NCBI GenBank assembly: GCA_016214105.1
Contig: JACRPD010000023.1
Location: 1-40,193, forward strand
Length of the DNA: 40,193 bases
Source of the DNA: Candidatus Magasanikiibacteriota bacterium
GTDB lineage: Bacteria; Patescibacteriota; Patescibacteriia; Magasanikbacterales; UBA922
Reading direction: 5' to 3'
The notes under the pieces are model-generated. The model searched no databases. It was not told the DNA's origin and saw only the letters and a program-made list of their open reading frames with translations. Position 1 is the first letter of the stretch, and every line of letters begins with the position of its first letter. Below, in pieces: positions 1,976 through 12,195 of the stretch. The position numbers and the translations under genes are program-made.

Positions 1976-2069
1976 GGACTACGGACTACCGACTACGGCC
2001 GACCGCTGACTTGCTTACGGTTTCCACTCTCTCGTGGGGCGGTGGTCTGTAGTCCGTTGTCCGTAGTCC
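1976..2069 (+). repeat. Local hairpin formed by the left cassette arm (alternative to the long-range stem)
   Basis: Positions 1976-2004 pair with 2041-2069 at 24 Watson-Crick pairs plus 1 G-T out of 29. The loop is 36 nt. Confidence 0.65.
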
Positions 2070-2074
2070 AAAAT

Positions 2075-2446
2075 ATGTATTACCGATTTGAAAATCTCGA
2101 GGTCTGGAAGTTAGCAAGAGAATTTGTAAACCTAATTTATACACTAACAAGAAGTTTCCCAAAAGAAGAGCTCTTTGCCTTAACCAGTCAGATCAGACGC
2201 GCGGCCATTTCTATAATGTTAAATATAACCGAGGGATCTGACAGAAAATCAGACATTGAATTTATCAGGTTTTTACGCATCGCCCTTACTTCCTTGGAAG
2301 AAGTGGTTTCTGCCTTGTACATCGCCCTTGACCAAAAATACATAACACAAAAACAGTTTGATGAACTATACCCAAAAACAAATTTTTTAAGCAAAAAAAT
2401 TAACTCACTAATTAATTATTTAAACACAACTGCGATACGCAGATAA
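2075..2446 (+). CDS. Four-helix-bundle protein (23S rRNA intervening-sequence protein / Avd-like family)
   Basis: MYYRFENLEVWKLAREFVNLIYTLTRSFPKEELFALTSQIRRAAISIMLNITEGSDRKSDIEFIRFLRIALTSLEEV fits the family pattern (F..L.VW..A......Y..T..FP..E...L..Q.RRAA.S...NI.EG). The ATG at 2075 is preferred over the GTG at 2042, which lies inside the hairpin arm. Confidence 0.8.
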   Translation: MYYRFENLEVWKLAREFVNLIYTLTRSFPKEELFALTSQIRRAAISIMLNITEGSDRKSDIEFIRFLRIALTSLEEVVSALYIALDQKYITQKQFDELYPKTNFLSKKINSLINYLNTTAIRR

Positions 2447-4000: not shown

Positions 4001-4043
4001 AATTAGAAAGTGCATAAATGAGTAGGTGTATAGGTTTATAAGT

Positions 4044-4892
4044 ATGAATGTGCATCGACCAATTTTTATTATTACAATCTTATCTGCCGCTCTCGTCCTC
4101 CTCGGCGCCGGCTGTCTTTCTAAAACTTCAAAAACAGTTGTAAACAACACGGCGACAAGCGCGGCCGAAGTGGTAAAAAAGAAACCGCAAATTGACACCT
4201 CGGCAAATCCGGCTTACGCTTATTGCAAAAAAACCGGCAATGAATTAATCATCCGCTTCAACGAAACAACCTCAAGCTCTGTCGCCTACTGCCGTTTTGT
4301 TGACACTACAGAATGCGAAGCGGAAAAATTTTTCAAACAAACCTGCGCGCCTGGGCAAGGAGCAAAAACTTACGCTTTGACGGAAAAAAATAATAATTTC
4401 GCCGCCTGCACCAATGAATACGAGCCGATCTGCGGCGCGAATGGCATAACTTATACCAACACCTGCTTGGCGCAAGTTCAGGGTATAATTATTTCCCATA
4501 CCGGCGTTTGCGCTCCAACCGAACAAAAACAAGTGGTAATAGAAAATAAAAATAGCACGGCAGAAAATACTAGCAAAAACGCTGAAAAAATCGCGGCGGT
4601 TGATAATCAAAATACAAGTGATCCGTCAGGTTGGCTCGGAATAATCAAAGACTTCGCGCTCTCCGCGCCAAAATCAAACCCGCCGGCATTTATTGAAAAA
4701 TGCGCTTATTCCGGAAATACCACCTACTACTTCTCGCCAGGTTGTGACGGTTGCGCCACCACTCTATATAACCAAAATGGCAATATCATTTGTTATCCAA
4801 GCAATGACCTTGATAACACCTGTCCGGCATATTTCACCGGCGCTTATCGGGCCAATTATTGCTCCAAAACCTGGCAGGATAACAGGCCTTGA
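4044..4892 (+). CDS. Secreted lipoprotein with a DUF333-like domain, a Kazal-type domain and a C-terminal Cys-rich domain
   Basis: Lipobox LLGAGC. NPAYAYCKKTGNE...YCRFVDTTECEAEKFF is DUF333-like. CTNEYEPICGANGITYTNTCLAQVQGIIISHTGVC fits the Kazal spacing. The ATG at 4044 is preferred over the GTG at 4026. Confidence 0.75.
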   Translation: MNVHRPIFIITILSAALVLLGAGCLSKTSKTVVNNTATSAAEVVKKKPQIDTSANPAYAYCKKTGNELIIRFNETTSSSVAYCRFVDTTECEAEKFFKQTCAPGQGAKTYALTEKNNNFAACTNEYEPICGANGITYTNTCLAQVQGIIISHTGVCAPTEQKQVVIENKNSTAENTSKNAEKIAAVDNQNTSDPSGWLGIIKDFALSAPKSNPPAFIEKCAYSGNTTYYFSPGCDGCATTLYNQNGNIICYPSNDLDNTCPAYFTGAYRANYCSKTWQDNRP

Positions 4893-4986: not shown

Positions 4987-5667
4987 ATGTCAAAACGAAT
5001 GAGGGCGTTGGCGGAGCTCGTAGAAAAAAACAAAGTCTACACCGTTGATGAAGCCGTGGCGCTGGCAAAAAAAACCAGCAACACGAAATTTGACGCTTCA
5101 ATTGAAGCGCACGTCCGTTTGGGAGTTGACCCGAAAAAAAGCGAACAGCAAATCCGAGCGACGGTCGCTCTGCCGCATGGCACCGGCAAAACAAAAAAAC
5201 TCGCCGCTTTTGTCGGACCGAATGATGAGAAGGCGGCCAAAGAGGCCGGCGCGGATTTAGTTCTGACTGAAGAAGACATTAAAAAAATAAAAGACACCGG
5301 CAAGTTTGATTTTGAAATCGCGGTCGCCACGCCGGAAATGATGCCGAAATTGGCGAGCGCGGCGAAAGTCTTGGGTCCGAAAGGTTTGATGCCGAGCCCG
5401 AAAACGGAAACTGTTGGCGCGGATCTGAAAAAAATGATCAGTGAATTAAAAAAAGGCAAATTCACTTTTAAAAACGATGATACCGGCAATATCCACCAAT
5501 CCATCGGCAAAGCGAGCTTCGCCGAAGCGCAATTGAAAGAAAATTTTATCGCTTTTATGGAAGCGCTGAAAAAAGCCAAACCATCCTCGGCTAAAGGAAC
5601 CTATATTCAAGCGGTTTACTTGTCCAGCACCATGGGGCCGGGAATAAAAGTAGAGATTATCAATTAA
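4987..5667 (+). CDS. rplA: 50S ribosomal protein L1
   Basis: Contains KFDASIEAHVRLGVDPKKSEQQIRATVALPHGTGK, a canonical L1 sequence. Confidence 0.97.
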   Translation: MSKRMRALAELVEKNKVYTVDEAVALAKKTSNTKFDASIEAHVRLGVDPKKSEQQIRATVALPHGTGKTKKLAAFVGPNDEKAAKEAGADLVLTEEDIKKIKDTGKFDFEIAVATPEMMPKLASAAKVLGPKGLMPSPKTETVGADLKKMISELKKGKFTFKNDDTGNIHQSIGKASFAEAQLKENFIAFMEALKKAKPSSAKGTYIQAVYLSSTMGPGIKVEIIN

Positions 5668-5674
5668 ACATTAA

Positions 5675-5701
5675 ACACCACCTTTTGGGTGGTGTTTTTT
5701 A
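5675..5701 (+). terminator. Intrinsic terminator after rplA
   Basis: ACACCACC (5675-5682) pairs with GGTGGTGT (5688-5695), followed by TTTTT. Confidence 0.7.
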
Positions 5702-5706
5702 ACAAC

Positions 5707-6324
5707 ATGGGATGCCCATTCTGTAATTTCGATGCTGAAATTAAATACCGGCTGTTGATCGAAACAGAACATTTTTATCTATTCCCACCTCTTGGCGCTT
5801 TTATCGAAAGTTATTTAATGATTGCCAGCAAATCACACTACGCCAATCTAAGCGTTTTGCCAATGCCGTGGATCAAAGAACTCCGCACGCTGGAACAAAC
5901 CGCGCGCAGATTTTTACTTGACACATACAAACTGCCAGTGATTGAATATGAACATGGCACTGACCCAACAAGCAATGAGAAAGCCGGCGGTTGCGTTGAG
6001 CACTTCCATCTCGCGCTAATTGCCACCAAAAAAGACGTTTTTCCAACCATAACGACGCAATTGGGATGCGGCAAACATATCAAAAATATTGATGACCTCA
6101 CGACACTATACCGGACGGAGCAACTATCCGCTTACCTATTGTACAAAGACAAAAAACATGTTATTTATTGGAATAGACCGCTAATTATAAGCCAATATAT
6201 GCGTCGTCTATTGGCCCCGGATCTGGAGAAGCAAAAATTTGATTGGCACTTCTTCCCTTTCAAAAAAAATATGGAGCGGTGTAAAAAAAAATGGAAGGCG
6301 TGGTTCAAAGACCAAACCGAATAA
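5707..6324 (+). CDS. HIT-superfamily-like protein (divergent histidine triad)
   Basis: The N-terminal CPFC resembles the Hint-type CxxC. GGCVEHFHLALI carries an HxHxA variant of the HxHxHxx motif. The ATG at 5707 is preferred because the GTG at 5689 lies inside the rplA terminator. Confidence 0.55.
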   Translation: MGCPFCNFDAEIKYRLLIETEHFYLFPPLGAFIESYLMIASKSHYANLSVLPMPWIKELRTLEQTARRFLLDTYKLPVIEYEHGTDPTSNEKAGGCVEHFHLALIATKKDVFPTITTQLGCGKHIKNIDDLTTLYRTEQLSAYLLYKDKKHVIYWNRPLIISQYMRRLLAPDLEKQKFDWHFFPFKKNMERCKKKWKAWFKDQTE

Positions 6325-6336
6325 ATTAGATAGAAT

Positions 6337-7353
6337 ATGTTAATTATTAGCGCTATCGCCATCAACTCATTCACAGACAAACAGGTGAGAAAAATCATTC
6401 TTGCCGGCGCTGACATGCTGCGTTTTAATTTTTCCTACCGCACTATTTCTGAAACCATTAAATGGATAAAAATAGCCCAAGAAACGCGGTGGGAATTAAA
6501 CTCATCCATCAAACTCTTGATTGACCTCCCATCAGAAAAAATCCGCTTAGGCAACTTTGACCTTAAAACCCATACTGTAAAAGAGGGGGAGGAAATAATT
6601 TTTCAATCAGCCGACTATTCGCCTGACTGCAATCAGTTTGTTCCGGTGCAAACAACAAAATTGGGCGAAAAAACTTATTTGGATGAAATGATCATGGTTG
6701 GGGACGGCGACATCAGTATACAGGTGATGGAAATTATAGATGCTGACACTATAAAGGCGCGCATTCTCAACAATGGCGTACTCCAAGCGATGAAAGTCCT
6801 CCACATTAACACAGGCATCAACGAACAAAAATTGCTTAACTATTACAAACAAATCTTCCAATGCATAAATGAAATCCAGCCGCACTATATCGCTATTCCT
6901 TTCATCAATAATTCAATCAACCAACAAATTATTGCTGAGATACCGCAAGAAAATCATTACAAGATAATCGTCAAAATTGAGGACCGGGAAGGTCTAAATT
7001 CGATAGAAACACTTTGCCAAGACGCTGTTTATGATATGATCCTTGTGGACCGCGGCGAATTGGGCGTGAATCTACCCTATGAAGAATTGGGTGTGATCCA
7101 AAAAAACATTATCTGCATAGCACGCCAATACCATAAGCCGGTAATAATCTCCACCCAAATACTTGAAAGCACTATGAACAATTACATACCGGGACGGTCC
7201 GATATTCTAGATCTCACCAATATAATTTTAGATGGGGCGGACGGGATCATGCTCTGCCGCGAAACCGGTTTCGGACTCAGGCCAGCCTACACCATCTCAG
7301 TTGCCAAACGGATCATTCAAGCAGTAAAAAAATATAAACAAAAGATAGCTTAA
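6337..7353 (+). CDS. Pyruvate-kinase-like barrel protein (A+B domains only, divergent active-site motifs)
   Basis: AGADMLRFNFSY, KIEDREGLNSIE, VDRGELGV, PVIISTQILEST and DGADGIMLCRETGFG align with the PK motifs NFSHG, KIE..EG, ARGDLGVE, TQMLESM and DG.D..MLS.ETA.G. At 338 aa it has no C-terminal regulatory domain. Confidence 0.7.
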   Translation: MLIISAIAINSFTDKQVRKIILAGADMLRFNFSYRTISETIKWIKIAQETRWELNSSIKLLIDLPSEKIRLGNFDLKTHTVKEGEEIIFQSADYSPDCNQFVPVQTTKLGEKTYLDEMIMVGDGDISIQVMEIIDADTIKARILNNGVLQAMKVLHINTGINEQKLLNYYKQIFQCINEIQPHYIAIPFINNSINQQIIAEIPQENHYKIIVKIEDREGLNSIETLCQDAVYDMILVDRGELGVNLPYEELGVIQKNIICIARQYHKPVIISTQILESTMNNYIPGRSDILDLTNIILDGADGIMLCRETGFGLRPAYTISVAKRIIQAVKKYKQKIA

Positions 7354-7361
7354 AAACCGGT

Positions 7362-8456
7362 ATGTCCGTTATCAAAGAAATCACCGACAACCAAATGCCG
7401 TCTTTCACGGAATGGTTTAATGAAATCAATTATCAAGACACGGAAAAATTCCGTCTGGAAGATAATACCAAGCGCGACCGCTTGGAAATTTTATATCAAA
7501 TCGCCGGTCTGCCTTACGACCGGCCGGAACGGCTGATGGTACGCGACATCATGGATAACACGCCGACTTTCCAAGACGTAGTACAACGAAAAGGCAATCT
7601 GCCTTGCGCTATGCGTCTGGTGCCGACAAAGCCGGAATTGCCAAAACTCCGCCAGCGCGGCCTGACTCTAAATGAATACCTGTCCGGCTGGTTTCGCGAA
7701 CTTAAAATCAATCCTGATGATTATAAAGCGGAGGTCGTGCCGCACAGCGATAAAACTCTATATTCTCTGATTTTTATAATTACCAAAAACAATCTTTTTG
7801 GCGAAGCCTATGCCGGCCCTCTTTGGGATATATCCACTGGACTGCATGAAAAAAACTCAATTCCGTTCACCTTCAGCTCCGGCATGTTAAAAATGGAAAA
7901 AGTTGATGAAGCGATGAAGCAGATCATAGCAGAAGCCATCAATCTGCTGCAAATTGACGGTGTTGATAAGCGTGAAATGCTATCCCAGCAAATCAACGCG
8001 GAATTTGACGACGCAAACCGGCTGATTGGTTATTTTGAGTTTGTTGTTTGGCCGAATCAAACCGGTTTTTTGGTTGATTACAATCGTCTTATTCCGAATT
8101 TATTCAGCGAAATAAATTTTAATCACATAAAAAACGATGATTTATCCGGCCTCTGCGCCAGTCCTGGACAGACCGCGGGTAAAATAAAAATCGTAATGGA
8201 CCCAGCCAAAACTCCATTTGAAAATGGCGAAATTCTGGTCTGCCCAATGACCATGATTGACTATCTGCCGCTGATGCGAAAAGCCGCCGGTATTATCACC
8301 GAACAGGGCAATATTTTATCCCACGCGGCAATTATCAGCCGCGAATTAAAAAAACCTTGTTTAGTGGGAGTAAAAAACGCGATGAAATTATTAAAAGACG
8401 AGCAAGAAGTTGAACTTGATGCTGGCGCGGGTATTGTAAGGGTAATTGAAAATTAA
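7362..8456 (+). CDS. Protein with a C-terminal PEP-utilizing-enzyme mobile (phosphohistidine swivel) domain and an unrecognised N-terminal domain of about 250 aa
   Basis: GLCASPGQTAGKIKIV...GEILVCPMT...AAGIITEQGNILSHAAIISRELKKPCLVG matches the swivel-domain pattern around the catalytic His (G..SHAAI.ARE...P..VG). Confidence 0.7.
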   Translation: MSVIKEITDNQMPSFTEWFNEINYQDTEKFRLEDNTKRDRLEILYQIAGLPYDRPERLMVRDIMDNTPTFQDVVQRKGNLPCAMRLVPTKPELPKLRQRGLTLNEYLSGWFRELKINPDDYKAEVVPHSDKTLYSLIFIITKNNLFGEAYAGPLWDISTGLHEKNSIPFTFSSGMLKMEKVDEAMKQIIAEAINLLQIDGVDKREMLSQQINAEFDDANRLIGYFEFVVWPNQTGFLVDYNRLIPNLFSEINFNHIKNDDLSGLCASPGQTAGKIKIVMDPAKTPFENGEILVCPMTMIDYLPLMRKAAGIITEQGNILSHAAIISRELKKPCLVGVKNAMKLLKDEQEVELDAGAGIVRVIEN

Positions 8457-8463
8457 AGGTAAA

Positions 8464-8502
8464 CACCTCACCCCTTGCCCCTCTCCTTATAAAGGAGAGG
8501 GG
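8464..8502 (+). repeat. GC-rich palindromic repeat family, copy R1
   Basis: CACCTCACCCC-TTG-CCCCTCTCCTT-ATA-AAGGAGAGGGG with a perfect 11-bp stem. Confidence 0.8.
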
Positions 8503-8516
8503 AAATAATGTGGCCT

Positions 8517-8537
8517 CTTGCCCCCCAAGGGGTTTTT
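8517..8537 (+). terminator. Possible weak terminator after the swivel-domain gene
   Basis: CCCC..GGGG short stem (8521-8532) followed by T6. The stem is only about 4 bp. Confidence 0.3.
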
Positions 8538-8546
8538 TGTTAGAAT
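8538..8546 (+). promoter_or_regulatory. Extended -10 element upstream of the dCMP deaminase gene
   Basis: TGTTAGAAT (TGn + TAGAAT), 25 nt upstream of the ATG. Confidence 0.35.
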
Positions 8547-8571
8547 ATTACCAGATTTTTAACTTAAATAT

Positions 8572-9045
8572 ATGCCGGAAAAACCACGTGAAGGAGCAAT
8601 CTCATGGGATGAATGTTTTATGCGCATCGCTCATGTAATCTCCGAACGCTCCAAAGATCCGTCCACCCAAGCCGGCGCGGTAATAGTAACTGCCAACAAT
8701 GTAGCTGTTGGCATGGGCTATAATGGCTTCCCGCGCGGCGTGGATAGCGATATTTTCCCTTGGGAACGCGAGGGTGATTTTGTAGATACAAAATACGCCT
8801 ATGTTTGCCACGCGGAAGAAAACGCCATCTATAACGCCAATGTCCAGACTAAAAATTGCAAAATCTATTGCACGCTGTTCCCCTGCAACGAATGCGCCAA
8901 AACAATAATCCAAAACGGCATAGTTGAAATTATTTTTGAAAGCGACAAATACCATGACGAAAAAGTCTGGGTCGCTTCGCGCCGCATGTTGGACGCGGCT
9001 GGAATAAAATATCGCCAGTATATTTCTGATTACAGTAAAGTATGA
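8572..9045 (+). CDS. Deoxycytidylate (dCMP) deaminase
   Basis: WDECFMRIAHVISERSKDPSTQAGAVIV, GYNGFPRG, the zinc motifs CHAEENAI and PCNECAK. Confidence 0.9.
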   Translation: MPEKPREGAISWDECFMRIAHVISERSKDPSTQAGAVIVTANNVAVGMGYNGFPRGVDSDIFPWEREGDFVDTKYAYVCHAEENAIYNANVQTKNCKIYCTLFPCNECAKTIIQNGIVEIIFESDKYHDEKVWVASRRMLDAAGIKYRQYISDYSKV

Positions 9046-9605
9046 CAAATAAAAAAATCGTCTTCGGACTGGTCGGCGATCTGGCCGCGGGCAAGAGCAC
9101 GGTCAGTAAATACTTGCGAGAAAAATATAATATCAATTCTTATTTATATTCCACGCCTCTGCGCGATATTCTTAAACGCATATACATTGAAGAAAGCCGC
9201 GAAAATCTGCAAAAATTATCCATTTGGCTGCGGGAAAATTTTGACCAGCAGATCTTGGGCAAAATTATCGCGCGCGACGTGGAAAACGACGGCAACGAGA
9301 TGATTATCGCGGATGGAATCCGCCGTCCGTCCGACATCGCGCAACTGGAACAATTGCCGGGCTTTATCCTAATTTACATTACTGCCGAACCGCATCTCCG
9401 CTGGCAAAGACAAACCAACCGCAATCAAAATGCCGGCGACGCGCAAAAAACCTTTGAACAATTCATGCGCGATGAGGAATCAGAAGCGGAAAAACCCATA
9501 AAAGAATTGGGCGGGCGGGCAAAATTCACTATCACCAACAACGGAACCGAAACGGAATTGTACCAACAGATTGAAGATATAATAAAAAGTATCAAGTCTT
9601 ATTAA
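9042..9605 (+). CDS. P-loop NMP-kinase-fold protein (putative (d)NMP kinase)
   Basis: Walker A motif GLVGDLAAGKST. The start overlaps the upstream stop in ATGA. It is embedded between dCMP deaminase and dut. Confidence 0.55.
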   Translation: MTNKKIVFGLVGDLAAGKSTVSKYLREKYNINSYLYSTPLRDILKRIYIEESRENLQKLSIWLRENFDQQILGKIIARDVENDGNEMIIADGIRRPSDIAQLEQLPGFILIYITAEPHLRWQRQTNRNQNAGDAQKTFEQFMRDEESEAEKPIKELGGRAKFTITNNGTETELYQQIEDIIKSIKSY

Positions 9606-9633
9606 CGTTATTAGCGGATCAAATTAGCGGGCT

Positions 9634-10056
9634 ATGCGAATAAAAATAAAACGATTGAAACCGGACGCAGTACTTCCAACTTACGCCCATCCTGGTGATG
9701 TTGGCATGGATTTGTATTCGCTTGAAGATTATGAATTAAAGGCCGGCGAAAGAAAAATTTTCTTGCTGGGGTTCGCTTTGGAATTCCCAACCGGCTACGC
9801 CGCAATCGTCAAAGATAAGGGTGGTCTCCCCCACTATCACGGTTTGCACACTATGGGTGGTGTTTTTGATGCTGGTTTCAGAGGTGAATATAATGTGAAT
9901 CTCATAAATTTGGGTTCAGAACCGGTAAAAATTGAAAAAAAACAAAAAATCGCCCAACTTCTTATCTACCCTGTGGTCATCGCCGAACTGGAAGAAACGC
10001 AAGAGCTATCCGACAGCTCACGCGGTTTGGGACAATTCGGGAGCACTGGTAAATAA
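9634..10056 (+). CDS. dut: dUTP diphosphatase
   Basis: LPTYAHPGDVGMDLYS, GGVFDAGFRGEY, SSRGLGQFGSTG. Confidence 0.9.
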   Translation: MRIKIKRLKPDAVLPTYAHPGDVGMDLYSLEDYELKAGERKIFLLGFALEFPTGYAAIVKDKGGLPHYHGLHTMGGVFDAGFRGEYNVNLINLGSEPVKIEKKQKIAQLLIYPVVIAELEETQELSDSSRGLGQFGSTGK

Positions 10057-10061
10057 TTTTT

Positions 10062-10955
10062 ATGCAAACTTACCTCAACATCATCCAAAAAGTCCTTAAC
10101 GAGGGCGTAAAAAAAACCGACCGCACCGGCACCGGCGTTTTGGCTATCGCCGGAGCGATGTTTGAACATAATATGGCTGACGGTTATCCGCTGTTGACGA
10201 CTAAAAAAATGCCGTTCAAAATCATGGCCGCGGAACTGGAATTTTTTATCAAAGGCATTACTGACAAACAATGGCTTCTTGATCGCAATTGCCACATCTG
10301 GGACGAATGGTGCAATCCCAAAAAAGTGCCGTATGCTCATGATGAAGAAACAAAATTAAAAATGAAAAACGAACGCGATTTAGGCGCGATCTACGGCTTT
10401 CAATGGCGGCACTTTAACGCGGATTATGAAAATTATAACACTGATTACGCCGGCAAGGGCGTTGACCAGTTAAAAAATTTAATTTCCGCGATAAAAAACG
10501 ATCCGTCCAGCCGGCGGCTGATTGTTTCCGCGTGGAATCCATGCATGCTTGATCAAATGGCTCTCCCGCCATGCCATTATCTTTTTCAAATAACCGTAAT
10601 CGACGGCAAACTAAATCTACTCTGGAATCAACGCTCGGTTGACACCATGCTCGGCCTGCCGTTTAATATATCTAGCTACGCGCTTCTCTTGCACTTATTA
10701 GCCAAAGAAACCGGATTAAAAGAAGGCAAACTCGTTGGTTTTTTAGCTGACACGCATATTTATCTAAACCACCTTGACGGCGCCAAAGAACAGCTGACAC
10801 GCGACCCAAACAAATATCCGTTGCCACGCATTGAAACCATTCAGCAAAGTTCAGGGCAAGCTAAAAATTTTTCAATTTTTGATTGGCAATACATAGATAC
10901 TGAACTTCAAGGTTATGAATCATATCCACGGATACCGTTGCCGATTGCTGTATAA
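10062..10955 (+). CDS. thyA: Thymidylate synthase (ThyA type)
   Basis: TDRTGTGVLAIAGAMFEH, YPLLTTKK, IYGFQWRHF, ALPPCHYLFQ, RSVDTMLGLPFNI. Confidence 0.95.
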   Translation: MQTYLNIIQKVLNEGVKKTDRTGTGVLAIAGAMFEHNMADGYPLLTTKKMPFKIMAAELEFFIKGITDKQWLLDRNCHIWDEWCNPKKVPYAHDEETKLKMKNERDLGAIYGFQWRHFNADYENYNTDYAGKGVDQLKNLISAIKNDPSSRRLIVSAWNPCMLDQMALPPCHYLFQITVIDGKLNLLWNQRSVDTMLGLPFNISSYALLLHLLAKETGLKEGKLVGFLADTHIYLNHLDGAKEQLTRDPNKYPLPRIETIQQSSGQAKNFSIFDWQYIDTELQGYESYPRIPLPIAV

Positions 10956-10958
10956 ATA

Positions 10959-11031
10959 GTGCGTAAGTGAATAAGTGTGTAAGTATATAAGTACTTACCA
11001 ACTTACACACTTACATACTTACACACTTCGC
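10959..11031 (+). repeat. Unit-repeat hairpin (GTAAGTGT / ACTTACAC units) filling the thyA-folA spacer
   Basis: The left arm 10965-10992 pairs with 11001-11028 at about 24 of 28 positions (hand pairing; mismatches are mostly A-C). The element ends 2 nt before the folA ATG. Confidence 0.7.
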
Positions 11032-11032
11032 T

Positions 11033-11509
11033 ATGATTACTCTCGTCGCCGCCATTTCTAAAAACAATTGCATTGGCAAGGATAATGCCATTCCTTGGGA
11101 TATTCCGGAAGATATGAAACGGATGCGGGAAATAACCAAAGGGAAAGTTTTGATTATGGGCCGCAAGACATGGGAGTCCATACCTGAAAACCGCAGGCCA
11201 TTGCCGCAGAGAACAAATGTGGTTATCACTCGCGACAAAAATTTTCCATTGCCAGCCGGCGCGGAACGGTTTGATTCGATAAACGAAGCGATTGCCGCGC
11301 ACAAAGATGAAGAAATCATCGGCTTTGGCGGACAAAGAATTTTTGAAGAGATGATCGACATCGCGGATGTTTTGGATTTAACTTTGGTTGATCAAAATAT
11401 TGAAAACTGCCACGCGTTTTTTCCGGAGATTGATCCGAAAGTGTGGAAAATCAGCGCGGAAGAAAAACATAATGGCTTTACGTTTATAACGTATCGTCGT
11501 GTCTTATGA
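11033..11509 (+). CDS. folA: Dihydrofolate reductase
   Basis: ITLVAAISKNNCIGKDNAIPWDIPEDMKRMREITKGKVLIMGRKTWESIP, typical of DHFR. Confidence 0.9.
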   Translation: MITLVAAISKNNCIGKDNAIPWDIPEDMKRMREITKGKVLIMGRKTWESIPENRRPLPQRTNVVITRDKNFPLPAGAERFDSINEAIAAHKDEEIIGFGGQRIFEEMIDIADVLDLTLVDQNIENCHAFFPEIDPKVWKISAEEKHNGFTFITYRRVL

Positions 11510-12195
11510 AAGGCTTATTTATTCTTCTAGAAGGCACTGACGGCTCGGGCAAAACCCTGCAGACCGGACTTTTGATTAAACGATTAAAAAAACTTAACAA
11601 AAAAGTGGAACAAATTAGTTTTCCGCAATATGGCCAGCCGAGCGCTTTCTTGGTGGAAAAATATCTGAACGGCGAATTTGGCAGCGCGTCTGAAGTGGGG
11701 CCTTATCGCGCTTCAATTCTCTATGCTGTGGATAGATTCGCGGCCGCGAATCAGATTAAAAAATGGCTGAAACAAGGCAAAATTATTATTGCCAACCGCT
11801 ATGTCGCGTCTAACATGGGGCATCAGGGCGGAAAAATAAAAAACGCGAAAAAACGCCGGCAATATTTGGACTGGGTGTATAATTTAGAGTATAATATACT
11901 CGGCATTCCCAAGCCGGATATCAATTTGATTTTACATGTTACGGCAAAAATTTCTCAAGAGCTCGTGGACAAAAAAGGCGAACGGGAATATTTAAAAGGC
12001 AAAAAACGCGATATCCACGAAGACGACCTGAACCATCTCCGCGACGCGGAAAAAGCGTATTTGGAAATAAACAAACGTTATCCGGAATTTAAAATTATTG
12101 AATGCGTCAAAAACAACAAAATCCTCCCGCCTCATATCATCCACGAAAAAATCTGGCAAACAATCACCCAATCGCCCATAATTCATAATTCATAA
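11506..12195 (+). CDS. tmk: Thymidylate kinase
   Basis: P-loop LEGTDGSGKT. The start overlaps the folA stop in ATGA. The last residues and the stop codon lie inside the CATAATT repeat. Confidence 0.9.
   Translation: MKGLFILLEGTDGSGKTLQTGLLIKRLKKLNKKVEQISFPQYGQPSAFLVEKYLNGEFGSASEVGPYRASILYAVDRFAAANQIKKWLKQGKIIIANRYVASNMGHQGGKIKNAKKRRQYLDWVYNLEYNILGIPKPDINLILHVTAKISQELVDKKGEREYLKGKKRDIHEDDLNHLRDAEKAYLEINKRYPEFKIIECVKNNKILPPHIIHEKIWQTITQSPIIHNS

Follow-up and report, generated by a model that had tools for sequence, protein, structure and literature searches.

Two-component small-molecule dikinases have been described, as exemplified by HpeHI (PMC12167813). HpeHI, phenylphosphate synthase, and rifampin phosphotransferase (RPH) share a layout in which an ATP-grasp is the donor, the substrate is bound by a domain of its own, and a swivel His in the C-terminal part carries the phosphate (PMC12167813; PMC4844700). 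VadK (Rv1127c) of Mycobacterium tuberculosis is a PPDK-derived protein that has lost its central-carbon role and autophosphorylates on His (PMC13400623). As for pyruvate kinase (PK), PKM2 moves the phosphate of PEP to a His of the protein PGAM1, and does so best when non-tetrameric (PMC11183095), and mycoplasma PK substitutes for ndk, making all (d)NTPs from (d)NDPs (PMC6609329). Our literature search for PPDK_N/swivel arrays or PK–swivel pairing in Patescibacteria and DPANN archaea, and for the PK of Magasanikbacteria, returned nothing relevant.

We analysed a 40,193-nt stretch of contig JACRPD010000023.1 from a Candidatus Magasanikiibacteriota bacterium, which is referred to as the window. 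The sequence-only reading of this DNA had described three co-oriented ORFs in tight succession, and this layout was confirmed, with all three on the plus strand and spacers of 12 nt between ORF1 and ORF2 and 8 nt between ORF2 and ORF3 (Table 1). As terminator-like hairpins flank the three genes, they appear to form a unit separate from the adjacent dTTP block. ORF1 has an alternative GTG start at 5689, which is not favoured because it falls within the upstream hairpin. Scanning the window for tRNAs and Rfam families yielded zero matches. An LDH gene is located near ORF2 in the window.

Table 1. Features of the three-gene unit and the neighbouring dTTP block (window coordinates)
Feature	Position	Strand	Description
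Terminator-like hairpin	5673-5701	+	AAACACCACC-TTTTG-GGTGGTGTTT then T run; 3' of rpL1; upstream edge of three-gene unit
ORF1	5707-6324	+	205 aa; probable HIT superfamily, CwfJ-C type (by sequence); ATG start
ORF1 motif CPFC	5713-5724	+	
ORF1 motif EHFHLAL	5998-6018	+	Degenerate triad, Ala for third His
ORF2	6337-7353	+	338 aa; short PK family, A barrel and B lid, no C domain
ORF2 motif RFNFSY	6421-6438	+	Alignment to solved PKs
ORF2 motif DLPSEKIR	6523-6546	+	
ORF2 motif VKIED	6970-6984	+	Lys213/Glu215
ORF2 motif DRGELG	7048-7065	+	Glu241 replaces Mg-ligand Asp
ORF2 motif STQILES	7150-7170	+	
ORF2 motif MLCRETGFG	7249-7275	+	
ORF3	7362-8456	+	Full extent
ORF3 N-domain (aa 1-255)	7362-8126	+	CPR/DPANN-restricted family; predicted ATP-grasp-like fold
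ORF3 R85, K95, R97, R99	7614-7661	+	Invariant or near-invariant
ORF3 E226	within 8028-8042	+	Invariant or near-invariant
ORF3 D239, N241, R242	8073-8087	+	Invariant or near-invariant
ORF3 phosphohistidine swivel (PEP-utilizers mobile) domain	8133-8453	+	Catalytic His321 codon 8322-8324
Terminator-like hairpin and T run	8512-8540	+	3' of ORF3
Promoter-like site	8518-8546	+	5' of dcd
dTTP block	8572-12195	+	Adjacent; six genes, dCMP deaminase to thymidylate kinase
dCMP deaminase (dcd)	8572-9045	+	dTTP block
P-loop AAA_17/18 kinase	9042-9605	+	dTTP block
dUTPase	9634-10056	+	dTTP block
ThyA	10062-10955	+	dTTP block
DHFR	11033-11509	+	dTTP block
Thymidylate kinase	11506-12195	+	dTTP block

ORF2 matches Pfam PF00224 with 170 bits (cut-off 30) over profile positions 6-326 of 328, and its residues 13-332 align to solved PKs. 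The PK_C domain has no Pfam match in ORF2, the protein stops at residue 338, and the NCBIfam pyruvate kinase models cover it only to about position 342 of 477. Its scores are below the curated equivalog cut-offs (200.2 bits vs 306.4 for TIGR01064, 115.5 vs 564 for the short-PK model PRK06739). The 120 relatives among the matches listed are all 288-358 aa long and have PF00224 alone. The alignment confirms the altered motifs RFNFSY, DRGELG, PGRSD, and MLCRETGFG, and together with the PF00224 match it bears out the proposal that ORF2 consists of PK A and B domains with four altered motifs and no C-terminal domain. Judged from its sequence, ORF2 is a divergent PK-family A+B barrel without the C domain, which in PKs is part of the tetramer interface. 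We compared it with the PK catalytic set R73, K270, E272, D296, T328, and S362/E364 (PKM numbering). Asp296 is replaced by Glu and Ser362 by Cys, while the PEP-phosphate Arg, the catalytic Lys, two acidic metal ligands, the Thr, and the E364 equivalent are retained, which suggests catalytic potential. The catalytic positions are generally invariant in canonical PKs. At K270/E272/D296, 108 of 157 ORF2 relatives have K/E/E and 22 have R/E/K; N, G, T, and Q are rarer states. ORF2 also keeps the B (lid) domain with its conserved Gly/Asn motifs, and hence a nucleotide acceptor fits better than a protein acceptor.

Residues 286-357 of ORF3 match PEP-utilizers PF00391 (79.9 bits, E=1e-22). The catalytic context GNILSHAAIISRELKKPCLVG is present with His321, which is invariant in 48 sequences, in agreement with the swivel domain and catalytic His assigned earlier. 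For residues 1-255, searches of Pfam, NCBIfam, and PDB sequences gave no match. The AlphaFold model of ORF3 has a pLDDT of 91, and its fold matches PPDK (TM 0.50), D-Ala-D-Ala ligases, and the ATP-binding domain of RPH; the modelled N-domain resembles an ATP-grasp/PPDK-like fold. The sequence-only reading was thus right that the N-terminal part is unlike anything at the sequence level, but not in taking it for an unprecedented acceptor, given the modelled fold and the usual partnership of the family with PPDK_N (see below). Comparison of the N-domain with PPDK_N of 18 neighbour proteins by hhalign gave a probability of 0.8%. The same comparison with five clusters of RPH-like array modules, which match RPH residues 567-878, gave probabilities of at most 5%, i.e. 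no relation. PF01326 (PPDK_N) is absent from ORF3 in Pfam and NCBIfam, and PF02896 (the PEP-utilizers_C barrel) is absent in Pfam from ORF3 and from 22 window ORFs, a set covering most of the ORFs of at least 110 aa between 227 and 30946. An ordinary split PEP synthase, against which the earlier proposal had been set, is rejected on the basis of these two absences, the hhalign result with PPDK_N, and the PK type of the barrel.

The CPFC and EHFHLAL motifs reported for ORF1 are both found in the translated ORF, and a full HxHxHxx histidine triad is absent from it. The Ala in place of the third His is common to ORF1 and two relatives (P0389 and L086), and four others have a full HxHxH (L125, L126, L127, and L131). 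ORF1 alone matches HIT PF01230 weakly (14.4 bits, cut-off 21.5, E=0.063), and relatives score above the cut-offs (L131, HIT, 22.5; L127, CwfJ_C_1, 25.6 vs 21). The family profile of seven sequences matches HIT proteins and structures (E=5.6e-6) and can be aligned from end to end with the CwfJ-type C-terminal region of CWF19L1 (E=4.5e-5). By these profile matches, ORF1 is probably a HIT-superfamily protein of the CwfJ-C type, composed of a HIT-like half and a conserved C-terminal half. A word-index search found only two homologues, and the AF2 model built on this two-sequence alignment (pLDDT 32.5) was unusable and discarded. ORF1 may be an accessory nucleotide hydrolase or transferase outside the core system. 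For nucleotidylation by the system, which had been suggested, we found nothing in support.

We then surveyed about 50 Magasanikbacteria loci, all from one class-level clade. The short PK gene lies between rpL1 and the dTTP genes in every one of them. ORF3-type genes are present in about half, with PK alone in the remainder, and the HIT-like gene in only 6. A co-conserved three-gene operon, as first envisaged, is thereby ruled out, and the loci with PK but no ORF3-type gene indicate an ORF3-independent role of PK. When both are present, PK is directly 5' of the ORF3-type gene; the spacing ranges from -11 to +21 nt, and overlaps (-4 or -8 nt) are common. The two genes are tightly coupled across the whole clade, with frequent overlaps and one natural fusion. 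The active-site state of PK is correlated with its neighbour: K/E/E PKs have an adjacent ORF3-type gene in most loci, and R/E/K PKs in none. Some ORF3-linked PKs have K270N, E272G, or D296N/K, by which a canonical PK would be crippled.

The survey bears on the explanation that the genes have no functional link. ORF2 would then be the housekeeping PK of glycolysis, staying next to rpL1 because the gene order is inherited, and ORF1 and ORF3 would be unrelated insertions in a variable slot. The slot between rpL1 and dcd does take many different genes across species, and synteny alone is weak evidence as all loci are from one class-level clade. Nevertheless, nearly all of the inserted genes are nucleotide-related, and the start/stop overlaps, the fusion, the PK states correlated with ORF3 presence, and the hairpins bounding the three-gene unit all speak for a link, making this explanation highly improbable.

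The position of PK is conserved 5' of dcd-kinase-dut-thyA-folA-tmk. The same island slot holds CYTH, NUDIX, PRTase, and a Metalloenzyme-superfamily gene (PF01676), read as phosphopentomutase-like, in other species. ORF3 is fused to a dCMP deaminase in P0040, and an NTPase_I-T::methyltransferase::ORF3 fusion occurs beside a NUDIX gene on five contigs. These fusions and neighbours point to a nucleotide substrate. The tie to deoxynucleotide metabolism, drawn earlier from gene position, is now strong, based on the conserved position before the dTTP genes and the fusions to dCMP deaminase and NTPase_I-T.

The ORF3-type family occurs only in CPR and DPANN. Outside Magasanikbacteria, its genes are directly 3' of a PPDK_N gene of ~311 aa, often with a 4-nt overlap, or reside in arrays headed by PPDK_N, or are fused as PPDK_N::ORF3N::swivel. 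In one Magasanikbacteria locus (L133), a natural in-frame fusion of 729 aa (P0275), encoded between rpL1 and dcd, joins the domains as PK::ORF3N::swivel. This PK fusion is of type A and found on a single contig; the ORF3 of the window is of type B. In the NJ tree, the PK-associated modules form one monophyletic clade that later duplicated into types A and B, and the separation of this clade from the PPDK_N-associated clades fits a single partner switch. As the N-domain is ATP-grasp-like in the model and the family is partnered or fused with PPDK_N, the PK-ORF3 system is a variant of the two-component RPH/HpeHI-type dikinases.

A self-sufficient ORF3 has to be weighed here. Its N-domain would bind ATP and His321 would autophosphorylate, following the example of VadK or of the PEPS/PPDK first half-reaction. 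The phospho-His would then make PEP from pyruvate on the PK barrel in reverse, as a PEP-synthase analogue, or regulate PK or dCMP deaminase. The modelled fold, like the nucleotide-binding domain of PPDK plus swivel, agrees with this, and so do the ORF3-type genes with no donor gene nearby (L004, L013, L015, L017, L022, and the archaeal fusion L214) and the precedent of VadK (PMC13400623). On the other hand, the ORF3 N-domain of fused relatives comes after a genuine PPDK_N, which would be superfluous if ATP were bound by the N-domain itself, the N-domain has no sequence-level similarity to PPDK_N, and PEP synthesis has no obvious purpose in the dTTP island of a fermentative organism. We regard a self-sufficient ORF3 as unlikely.

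Building on the domain identities, synteny, fusions, and phylogeny, we infer the donor, the acceptor, and the direction of transfer as follows. ORF2 and ORF3 would constitute a two-component PEP-driven phosphotransfer enzyme of the nucleotide-salvage/dTTP island of Magasanikbacteria. ORF3 would be the dikinase-type carrier and acceptor module, whose relatives in other Patescibacteria and DPANN archaea would be charged by a PPDK_N ATP-grasp subunit, and the minimal PK barrel would take the place of this donor. The barrel would bind PEP via Arg29, Lys213, Glu215, Glu241, and Thr273, and the phosphoryl group would be passed to His321 on the swivel. The swivel would then move to the ATP-grasp-like N-domain, with its eight conserved residues in Table 1, and a bound nucleotide-like acceptor would be phosphorylated. 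This acceptor would most likely be a pyrimidine deoxynucleoside or deoxynucleotide feeding dCMP deaminase and ThyA. The overall chemistry would be a PPDK/PEPS-like shuttle assembled from non-orthologous parts. Since PK persists where ORF3 is absent, the barrel is probably also a PEP:(d)NDP kinase by itself.

The reading we tentatively prefer, although at somewhat less than even odds, is that His321 receives its phosphate from PEP at the PK barrel and hands it on to a nucleotide in the N-domain. In favour of PK as the donor, PK fills exactly the upstream slot of PPDK_N, P0275 joins the two proteins, the tree has a single PK-associated clade, and the PK variant is correlated with ORF3. The retained catalytic residues of ORF2, the modelled fold of ORF3, the nucleotide-related fusions and neighbours, and the precedents of PK-PEPut, PKM2, and HpeHI are in line with it. 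Against it are the occurrence of PK without ORF3 in about half of the loci, the kept B lid, PPDK_N in the same genomes, type-B ORF3 without PK, the sole PK fusion being of type A, and the crippling substitutions in some ORF3-linked PKs. The further proposal, that the PK barrel replaced the ATP-grasp donor of a swivel-His dikinase module and gave rise to a PEP:nucleotide phosphotransferase coupling dNTP supply directly to glycolysis in these ultra-small bacteria, is more doubtful. Hence, the split PEP-dependent phosphotransfer system of the sequence-only reading survives in its PK barrel, its swivel His protein, and their tight coupling, but not in having HIT as a core part, an acceptor domain without precedent, or a need for PK as the donor.

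Nearly equal in standing is the explanation that the two proteins share a pathway with no direct phosphotransfer, which we consider a serious possibility. ORF2 would be an autonomous minimal K+-independent PK, serving glycolysis and/or acting as the PEP:(d)NDP kinase of the clade (dTDP to dTTP), and ORF3 would be a dikinase module that depends on ATP, receives its phosphate in trans from PPDK_N, and phosphorylates a nucleoside or nucleotide; adjacency and fusion would reflect consecutive steps of nucleotide salvage. Stand-alone PPDK_N genes do exist elsewhere in the same Magasanikbacteria genomes, where they head arrays of other swivel modules, and one of them shares a 550-kb contig with a PK-ORF3 locus. 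With these genes present, PEP-to-His transfer by the PK barrel need not be invoked, and ORF3 could be charged in trans. Moreover, PK is always beside dcd-kinase-dut-thyA, with or without ORF3, and retains the B domain and the majority K/E/E state; an LDH gene is close by in the window; at L004 and on the P0040 contig, a type-B ORF3 gene has no PK beside it; and mycoplasma PK stands in for the missing ndk on all (d)NDPs (PMC6609329). What a shared pathway leaves unexplained is why only the ORF3-type module quit the PPDK_N arrays in Magasanikbacteria, and why it became linked to PK, through translational coupling or fusion, in the domain order of the PPDK_N fusions. The drift of PK catalytic positions in the ORF2 family also argues against it.

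If the PK barrel charges the swivel His, the donor domains of swivel-type phosphotransferases, ATP-grasp and PK barrel, would be interchangeable, and ORF2 would be the first PK-family enzyme with a dedicated phospho-carrier domain as its physiological acceptor. The so far unexplained PK-PEPut association of Bacillus-type PKs would gain a testable function, and salvage-dependent Patescibacteria would have a PEP-driven route of nucleotide phosphorylation. Under the shared-pathway explanation too, the analysis defines a module confined to CPR/DPANN, in which an ATP-grasp-like domain and a swivel are linked to nucleotide metabolism. It also defines a PK without the C domain that occurs throughout the clade, with an altered active site and a constant location next to the dTTP genes, and reveals large arrays in which a single ATP-grasp gene serves many dikinase modules and which seem not to have been described before.

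Among known systems, the dikinase layout is either split into two subunits (HpeI and HpeH) or fused (RPH), and the ORF3 relatives with PPDK_N match it exactly. Unlike RPH, ORF3 has a substrate domain with no homology to the rifampin-binding domain; in Foldseek and profile comparisons, the RPH matches span only the swivel (104-114 columns). It differs from both RPH and HpeHI in that its N-domain looks ATP-grasp-like and the donor candidate in the window is a PK barrel, with no PPDK_N in that position. PPDK and PEPS similarly rely on a shuttling swivel His to link a nucleotide-binding ATP-grasp with a PEP/pyruvate TIM barrel, and the ORF3 model superposes on the N-terminal and central domains of PPDK with the above TM score. 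Unlike them, ORF3 has neither PF01326 nor PF02896, the PK A/B barrel is on a separate polypeptide, and the context is deoxynucleotides rather than the PEP-pyruvate node. VadK is derived from PPDK and belongs to a methylcitrate-cycle context, whereas no sequence similarity to PPDK_N is detectable in the ORF3 N-domain. PKM2 acting on PGAM1 offers a precedent for transfer from a PK active site to a protein His, favoured in non-tetrameric PK, and ORF2 lacks the C domain; yet it is eukaryotic moonlighting with an unrelated acceptor and no swivel domain. Mycoplasma PK is likewise from a small-genome bacterium, and the fixed place of ORF2 by tmk, thyA, and dut fits its role. Mycoplasma PKs are generally full-length and canonical, whereas ORF2 is truncated and its active-site residues are non-canonical. 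The Bacillus/Staphylococcus-type PKs with a C-terminal PEPut domain (PDB 2e28 and 3t05) also associate a PK barrel with a PEP-utilizers swivel, and the ORF3 swivel matches these PEPut domains with E=1e-13 and 39% identity in Foldseek. In contrast to the PK-ORF3 pair, these enzymes retain the allosteric C domain and have the swivel within the PK polypeptide itself, and they lack an ATP-grasp-like domain.

The three genes under study lie on the forward strand just as the sequence-only reading described, with spacers of 12 nt between ORF1 (HIT-like) and ORF2 (short pyruvate kinase, PK) and 8 nt between ORF2 and ORF3 (N-domain plus phosphohistidine swivel). A hairpin followed by a T run separates rpL1 from ORF1, and a second hairpin with a T run stands 3' of ORF3, followed by a promoter-like site and by dcd, the gene for dCMP deaminase. 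Because of these hairpins, the trio looks like a separate transcription unit in the window. The genes around it are those of NusG, rpL11, LDH and rpL1, then dcd, a P-loop kinase, dut, thyA, folA and tmk, and after tmk come gatB, miaA, miaB, thrS and type IV pilus genes. This gene content is that of a Patescibacteria (Magasanikbacteria) genome, and the closest relatives are named as Magasanikbacteria. Two further genes lie upstream: one of the 23S rRNA intervening-sequence protein family (PF05635, 129 bits) between nusG and rplK, and, between the LDH gene and rplA, one for a predicted secreted protein in which DUF333 and DUF6970 are combined with a Kazal-type inhibitor motif.

Coordinates of genes and sites, in the window unless a locus is named
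Feature	Position	Strand	Remark
23S rRNA intervening-sequence protein family gene	2042-2446	+	
Predicted secreted protein gene	4026-4892	+	
rpL1	4987-5667		
Hairpin, then T run	5673-5701		
ORF1	5707-6324	+	
ORF2	6337-7353	+	
ORF3	7362-8456	+	
Second hairpin with T run	8512-8540		
dCMP deaminase gene	start 8572		
P-loop kinase gene	9042-9605	+	
Archaeal fusion P0248	L214 6001-8211		overlaps upstream NUDIX gene, 5456-6004
Slot genes (CYTH, NUDIX, phosphoribosyltransferase, PF01676)	L088 9004-9938; L090 9022-9969; L104 2937-3497		
Slot genes, further (same set)	L092 6814-7986; L095 3457-5087; L129 1636-2805		
298-aa dCMP deaminase ORF	L131 10210-11106		

The survey covered 47 species-representative genome loci and, in addition, metagenome loci. 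The order is rpL1, an optional HIT-like gene, the short PK gene, none to two ORF3-type genes, dcd, kinase, dut and thyA. A short PK is present in every Magasanikbacteria locus examined, ORF3-type genes occur in about 23 of the loci and are lacking from about 24, and the HIT-like gene is found, among the surveyed loci, only in the window, L086, L125, L126, L127 and L131. The three genes are therefore not a conserved unit. ORF1 appears to belong to the HIT superfamily, being of the CwfJ-C type along its full length; the third His of the HxHxH triad is lost in it, whereas its relatives keep the complete triad. It fits the role of an additional nucleotide-handling accessory gene. Two short-PK loci, L086 (MFQN01000026.1) and L098/L036 (MFQN01000011.1), are found in the nearest public MAG, Magasanikbacteria RIFCSPLOWO2_12_FULL_43_12. 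One short PK stands 3' of rpL1 at the end of its contig; it is 51% identical to ORF2, and an ORF3-type fragment 91% identical to ORF3 comes after it. The other, 89% identical to ORF2, lies 3' of a fragment of a HIT-like gene. A tandem duplication of the module or a mixed bin could explain this.

Where an ORF3-type gene follows the PK gene, the distance is usually -11 to +21 nt, and on one contig the two are joined in frame as a 729-aa PK::ORF3N::swivel fusion (P0275) between rpL1 and dcd. In a neighbour-joining tree, all PK-associated modules fall in one clade, apart from the PPDK_N-associated clades (PPDK_N being the ATP-grasp donor, PF01326). This clade is duplicated into a PK-proximal type A, including the fusion, and a dcd-proximal type B, including the window ORF3. 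That the adjacency is mere inherited synteny is a lesser rival to a functional pairing.

ORF2 matches the Pfam PK barrel over nearly the full profile (170 bits) and has no PK_C domain in Pfam; its alignment to the NCBIfam pyruvate-kinase models stops at about 340 of 477, with scores below the cut-offs. The altered motifs claimed for it are borne out when it is aligned to the PK structures of M. tuberculosis and yeast. Its best 120 database relatives are 288-358 aa long, nearly all 332-358 aa, and PK_C is absent from them. Among 157 relatives, the equivalents of R73 and G295 (PKM numbering) are invariant and that of E364 nearly so. The family has a Lys, the mark of K+-independent PKs, at the K+-dependence marker position. 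K270/E272/D296 are, to our knowledge, invariant in canonical PKs; the corresponding residues are K/E/E in 108 of the 157, the window ORF2 among them; 22 have R/E/K, and a few show N, G, T or Q states. Judged from all these residues, the window ORF2 could be catalytically active, yet the short-PK family is not under canonical-PK constraint. The R/E/K subclade has Arg for the catalytic Lys and Lys for the Mg-ligand Asp (ARIES / NRGKLG, with RYSFSY and SSQILEG) and occurs in L103, L108-L111, L114-L120, L122, L123 and L132, with the PK gene at about 8001-9020 in most. It may represent a PK derivative that needs no metal or has no catalytic activity. In none of the loci does an ORF3-type gene adjoin an R/E/K PK.

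The C-terminal 100 residues of ORF3 form a PEP-utilizers swivel domain with invariant His321, and residues 1-255 have no sequence match in Pfam, NCBIfam or PDB. When 1.84 billion cluster representatives were scanned with phmmer, just 172 relatives came up. The AlphaFold model, built with 48 homologues in the alignment, is confident (pLDDT 91.4). Its Foldseek matches include PPDK, over the N-terminal plus central domains (TM 0.50), many D-Ala-D-Ala ligases (E about 1e-5, with about 215 columns) and rifampin phosphotransferase (RPH), the last represented by its ATP-binding domain alone. We read the modelled N-domain as ATP-grasp-like at the fold level only, because profile-profile comparison finds no relation to true PPDK_N proteins. 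What had been called a novel acceptor domain is instead such a module within a known enzyme architecture. Its conserved residues R85, K95, R97, R99, E226, D239, N241 and R242 would suit phosphate and Mg binding. Self-charging of ORF3, as in VadK or PEPS, is a lesser rival to charging by a partner.

Outside Magasanikbacteria, ORF3-type genes lie directly 3' of a 311-aa PPDK_N gene or within PPDK_N-headed arrays. At least eight cluster representatives are PPDK_N::ORF3N::swivel fusions, and others are longer PPDK_N proteins with two or three module-swivel units. The remaining array modules have their homologue in the rifampin-binding domain plus swivel of RPH; the ORF3 N-domain, in contrast, is unrelated to middle domains of that type. 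In Patescibacteria and DPANN loci, a single PPDK_N gene accompanies 2-9 tandem paralogous genes (337-612 aa), each with a C-terminal swivel and a different N-domain. Such arrays occur in L009, L010, L028, L034, L038, L044, L049, L057 and L062, and giant fused ORFs of 1,141-3,761 aa in L026, L029, L032, L051, L052 and L056. Most array N-domains are homologous to one another and to the RPH rifampin-binding domain. No description of these arrays was found in the literature searched.

The nucleotide link of ORF3 modules rests on more than their constant position, with the short PK, ahead of the dTTP genes. In P0040 a type-B ORF3 forms one protein with dCMP deaminase, and a DPANN-type archaeal fusion on five contigs joins NTPase_I-T (a house-cleaning NTPase), a SAM methyltransferase, an ORF3-type N-domain and a swivel; neither PPDK_N nor PK lies within 6 kb of its representative P0248. 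The rpL1-dcd slot is variable, and in other species holds CYTH, NUDIX, phosphoribosyltransferase and Metalloenzyme-superfamily (PF01676) genes, the last of which we read as phosphopentomutase-like. The P-loop kinase gene is kept in every dTTP block; its product matches only generic AAA_17/AAA_18 models, with weak similarity to dNMP and cytidylate kinases, and which phosphorylation step falls to ORF3 may depend on the substrate of this putative kinase. The dCMP deaminase ORF of L131 is 298 aa long, and a separate AAA kinase went undetected there, which may reflect a dcd::kinase fusion or an ORF-caller artefact.

Our best reading, held tentatively, is that the ORF2 barrel replaces PPDK_N as donor. 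His321 would take its phosphate from PEP, and a nucleotide-like acceptor bound in the ATP-grasp-like N-domain would then receive it from the swivel. Positional replacement, translational coupling, the fusion and a single evolutionary switch argue for it. The main rival, possible if somewhat doubtful, holds that ORF2 works on its own, as a PK or a (d)NDP kinase, the way PK does in ndk-less mycoplasmas (PMC6609329), and that a PPDK_N subunit charges ORF3 in trans. It gains support from the PPDK_N genes that these Magasanikbacteria genomes carry, one of them sharing a 550-kb contig with a PK-ORF3 locus, from the B lid retained in ORF2, from the many loci without an ORF3-type gene and from type-B genes without an adjoining PK. 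The interpretation first proposed is supported in part: a split PEP-dependent phosphotransfer stays plausible and is better framed, but the trio is not conserved as a unit and an ATP-dependent partner is available in trans.

With the PK barrel as donor, the pair would form a PPDK-like shuttle of non-orthologous parts serving pyrimidine deoxynucleotide supply. As a precedent, the PK site of PKM2 phosphorylates a protein His, that of PGAM1, and does so preferentially in the non-tetrameric state (PMC11183095). In RPH and two-component dikinases, the swivel His receives its phosphate from the ATP-grasp and passes it to a substrate bound in the middle domain; the PPDK_N::ORF3N::swivel fusions have their domains in the same order as RPH, HpeHI and phenylphosphate synthase (PMC4844700; PMC12167813). 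For the ORF2/ORF3 pairing, the PK-swivel fusions 2e28 and 3t05 are precedents.
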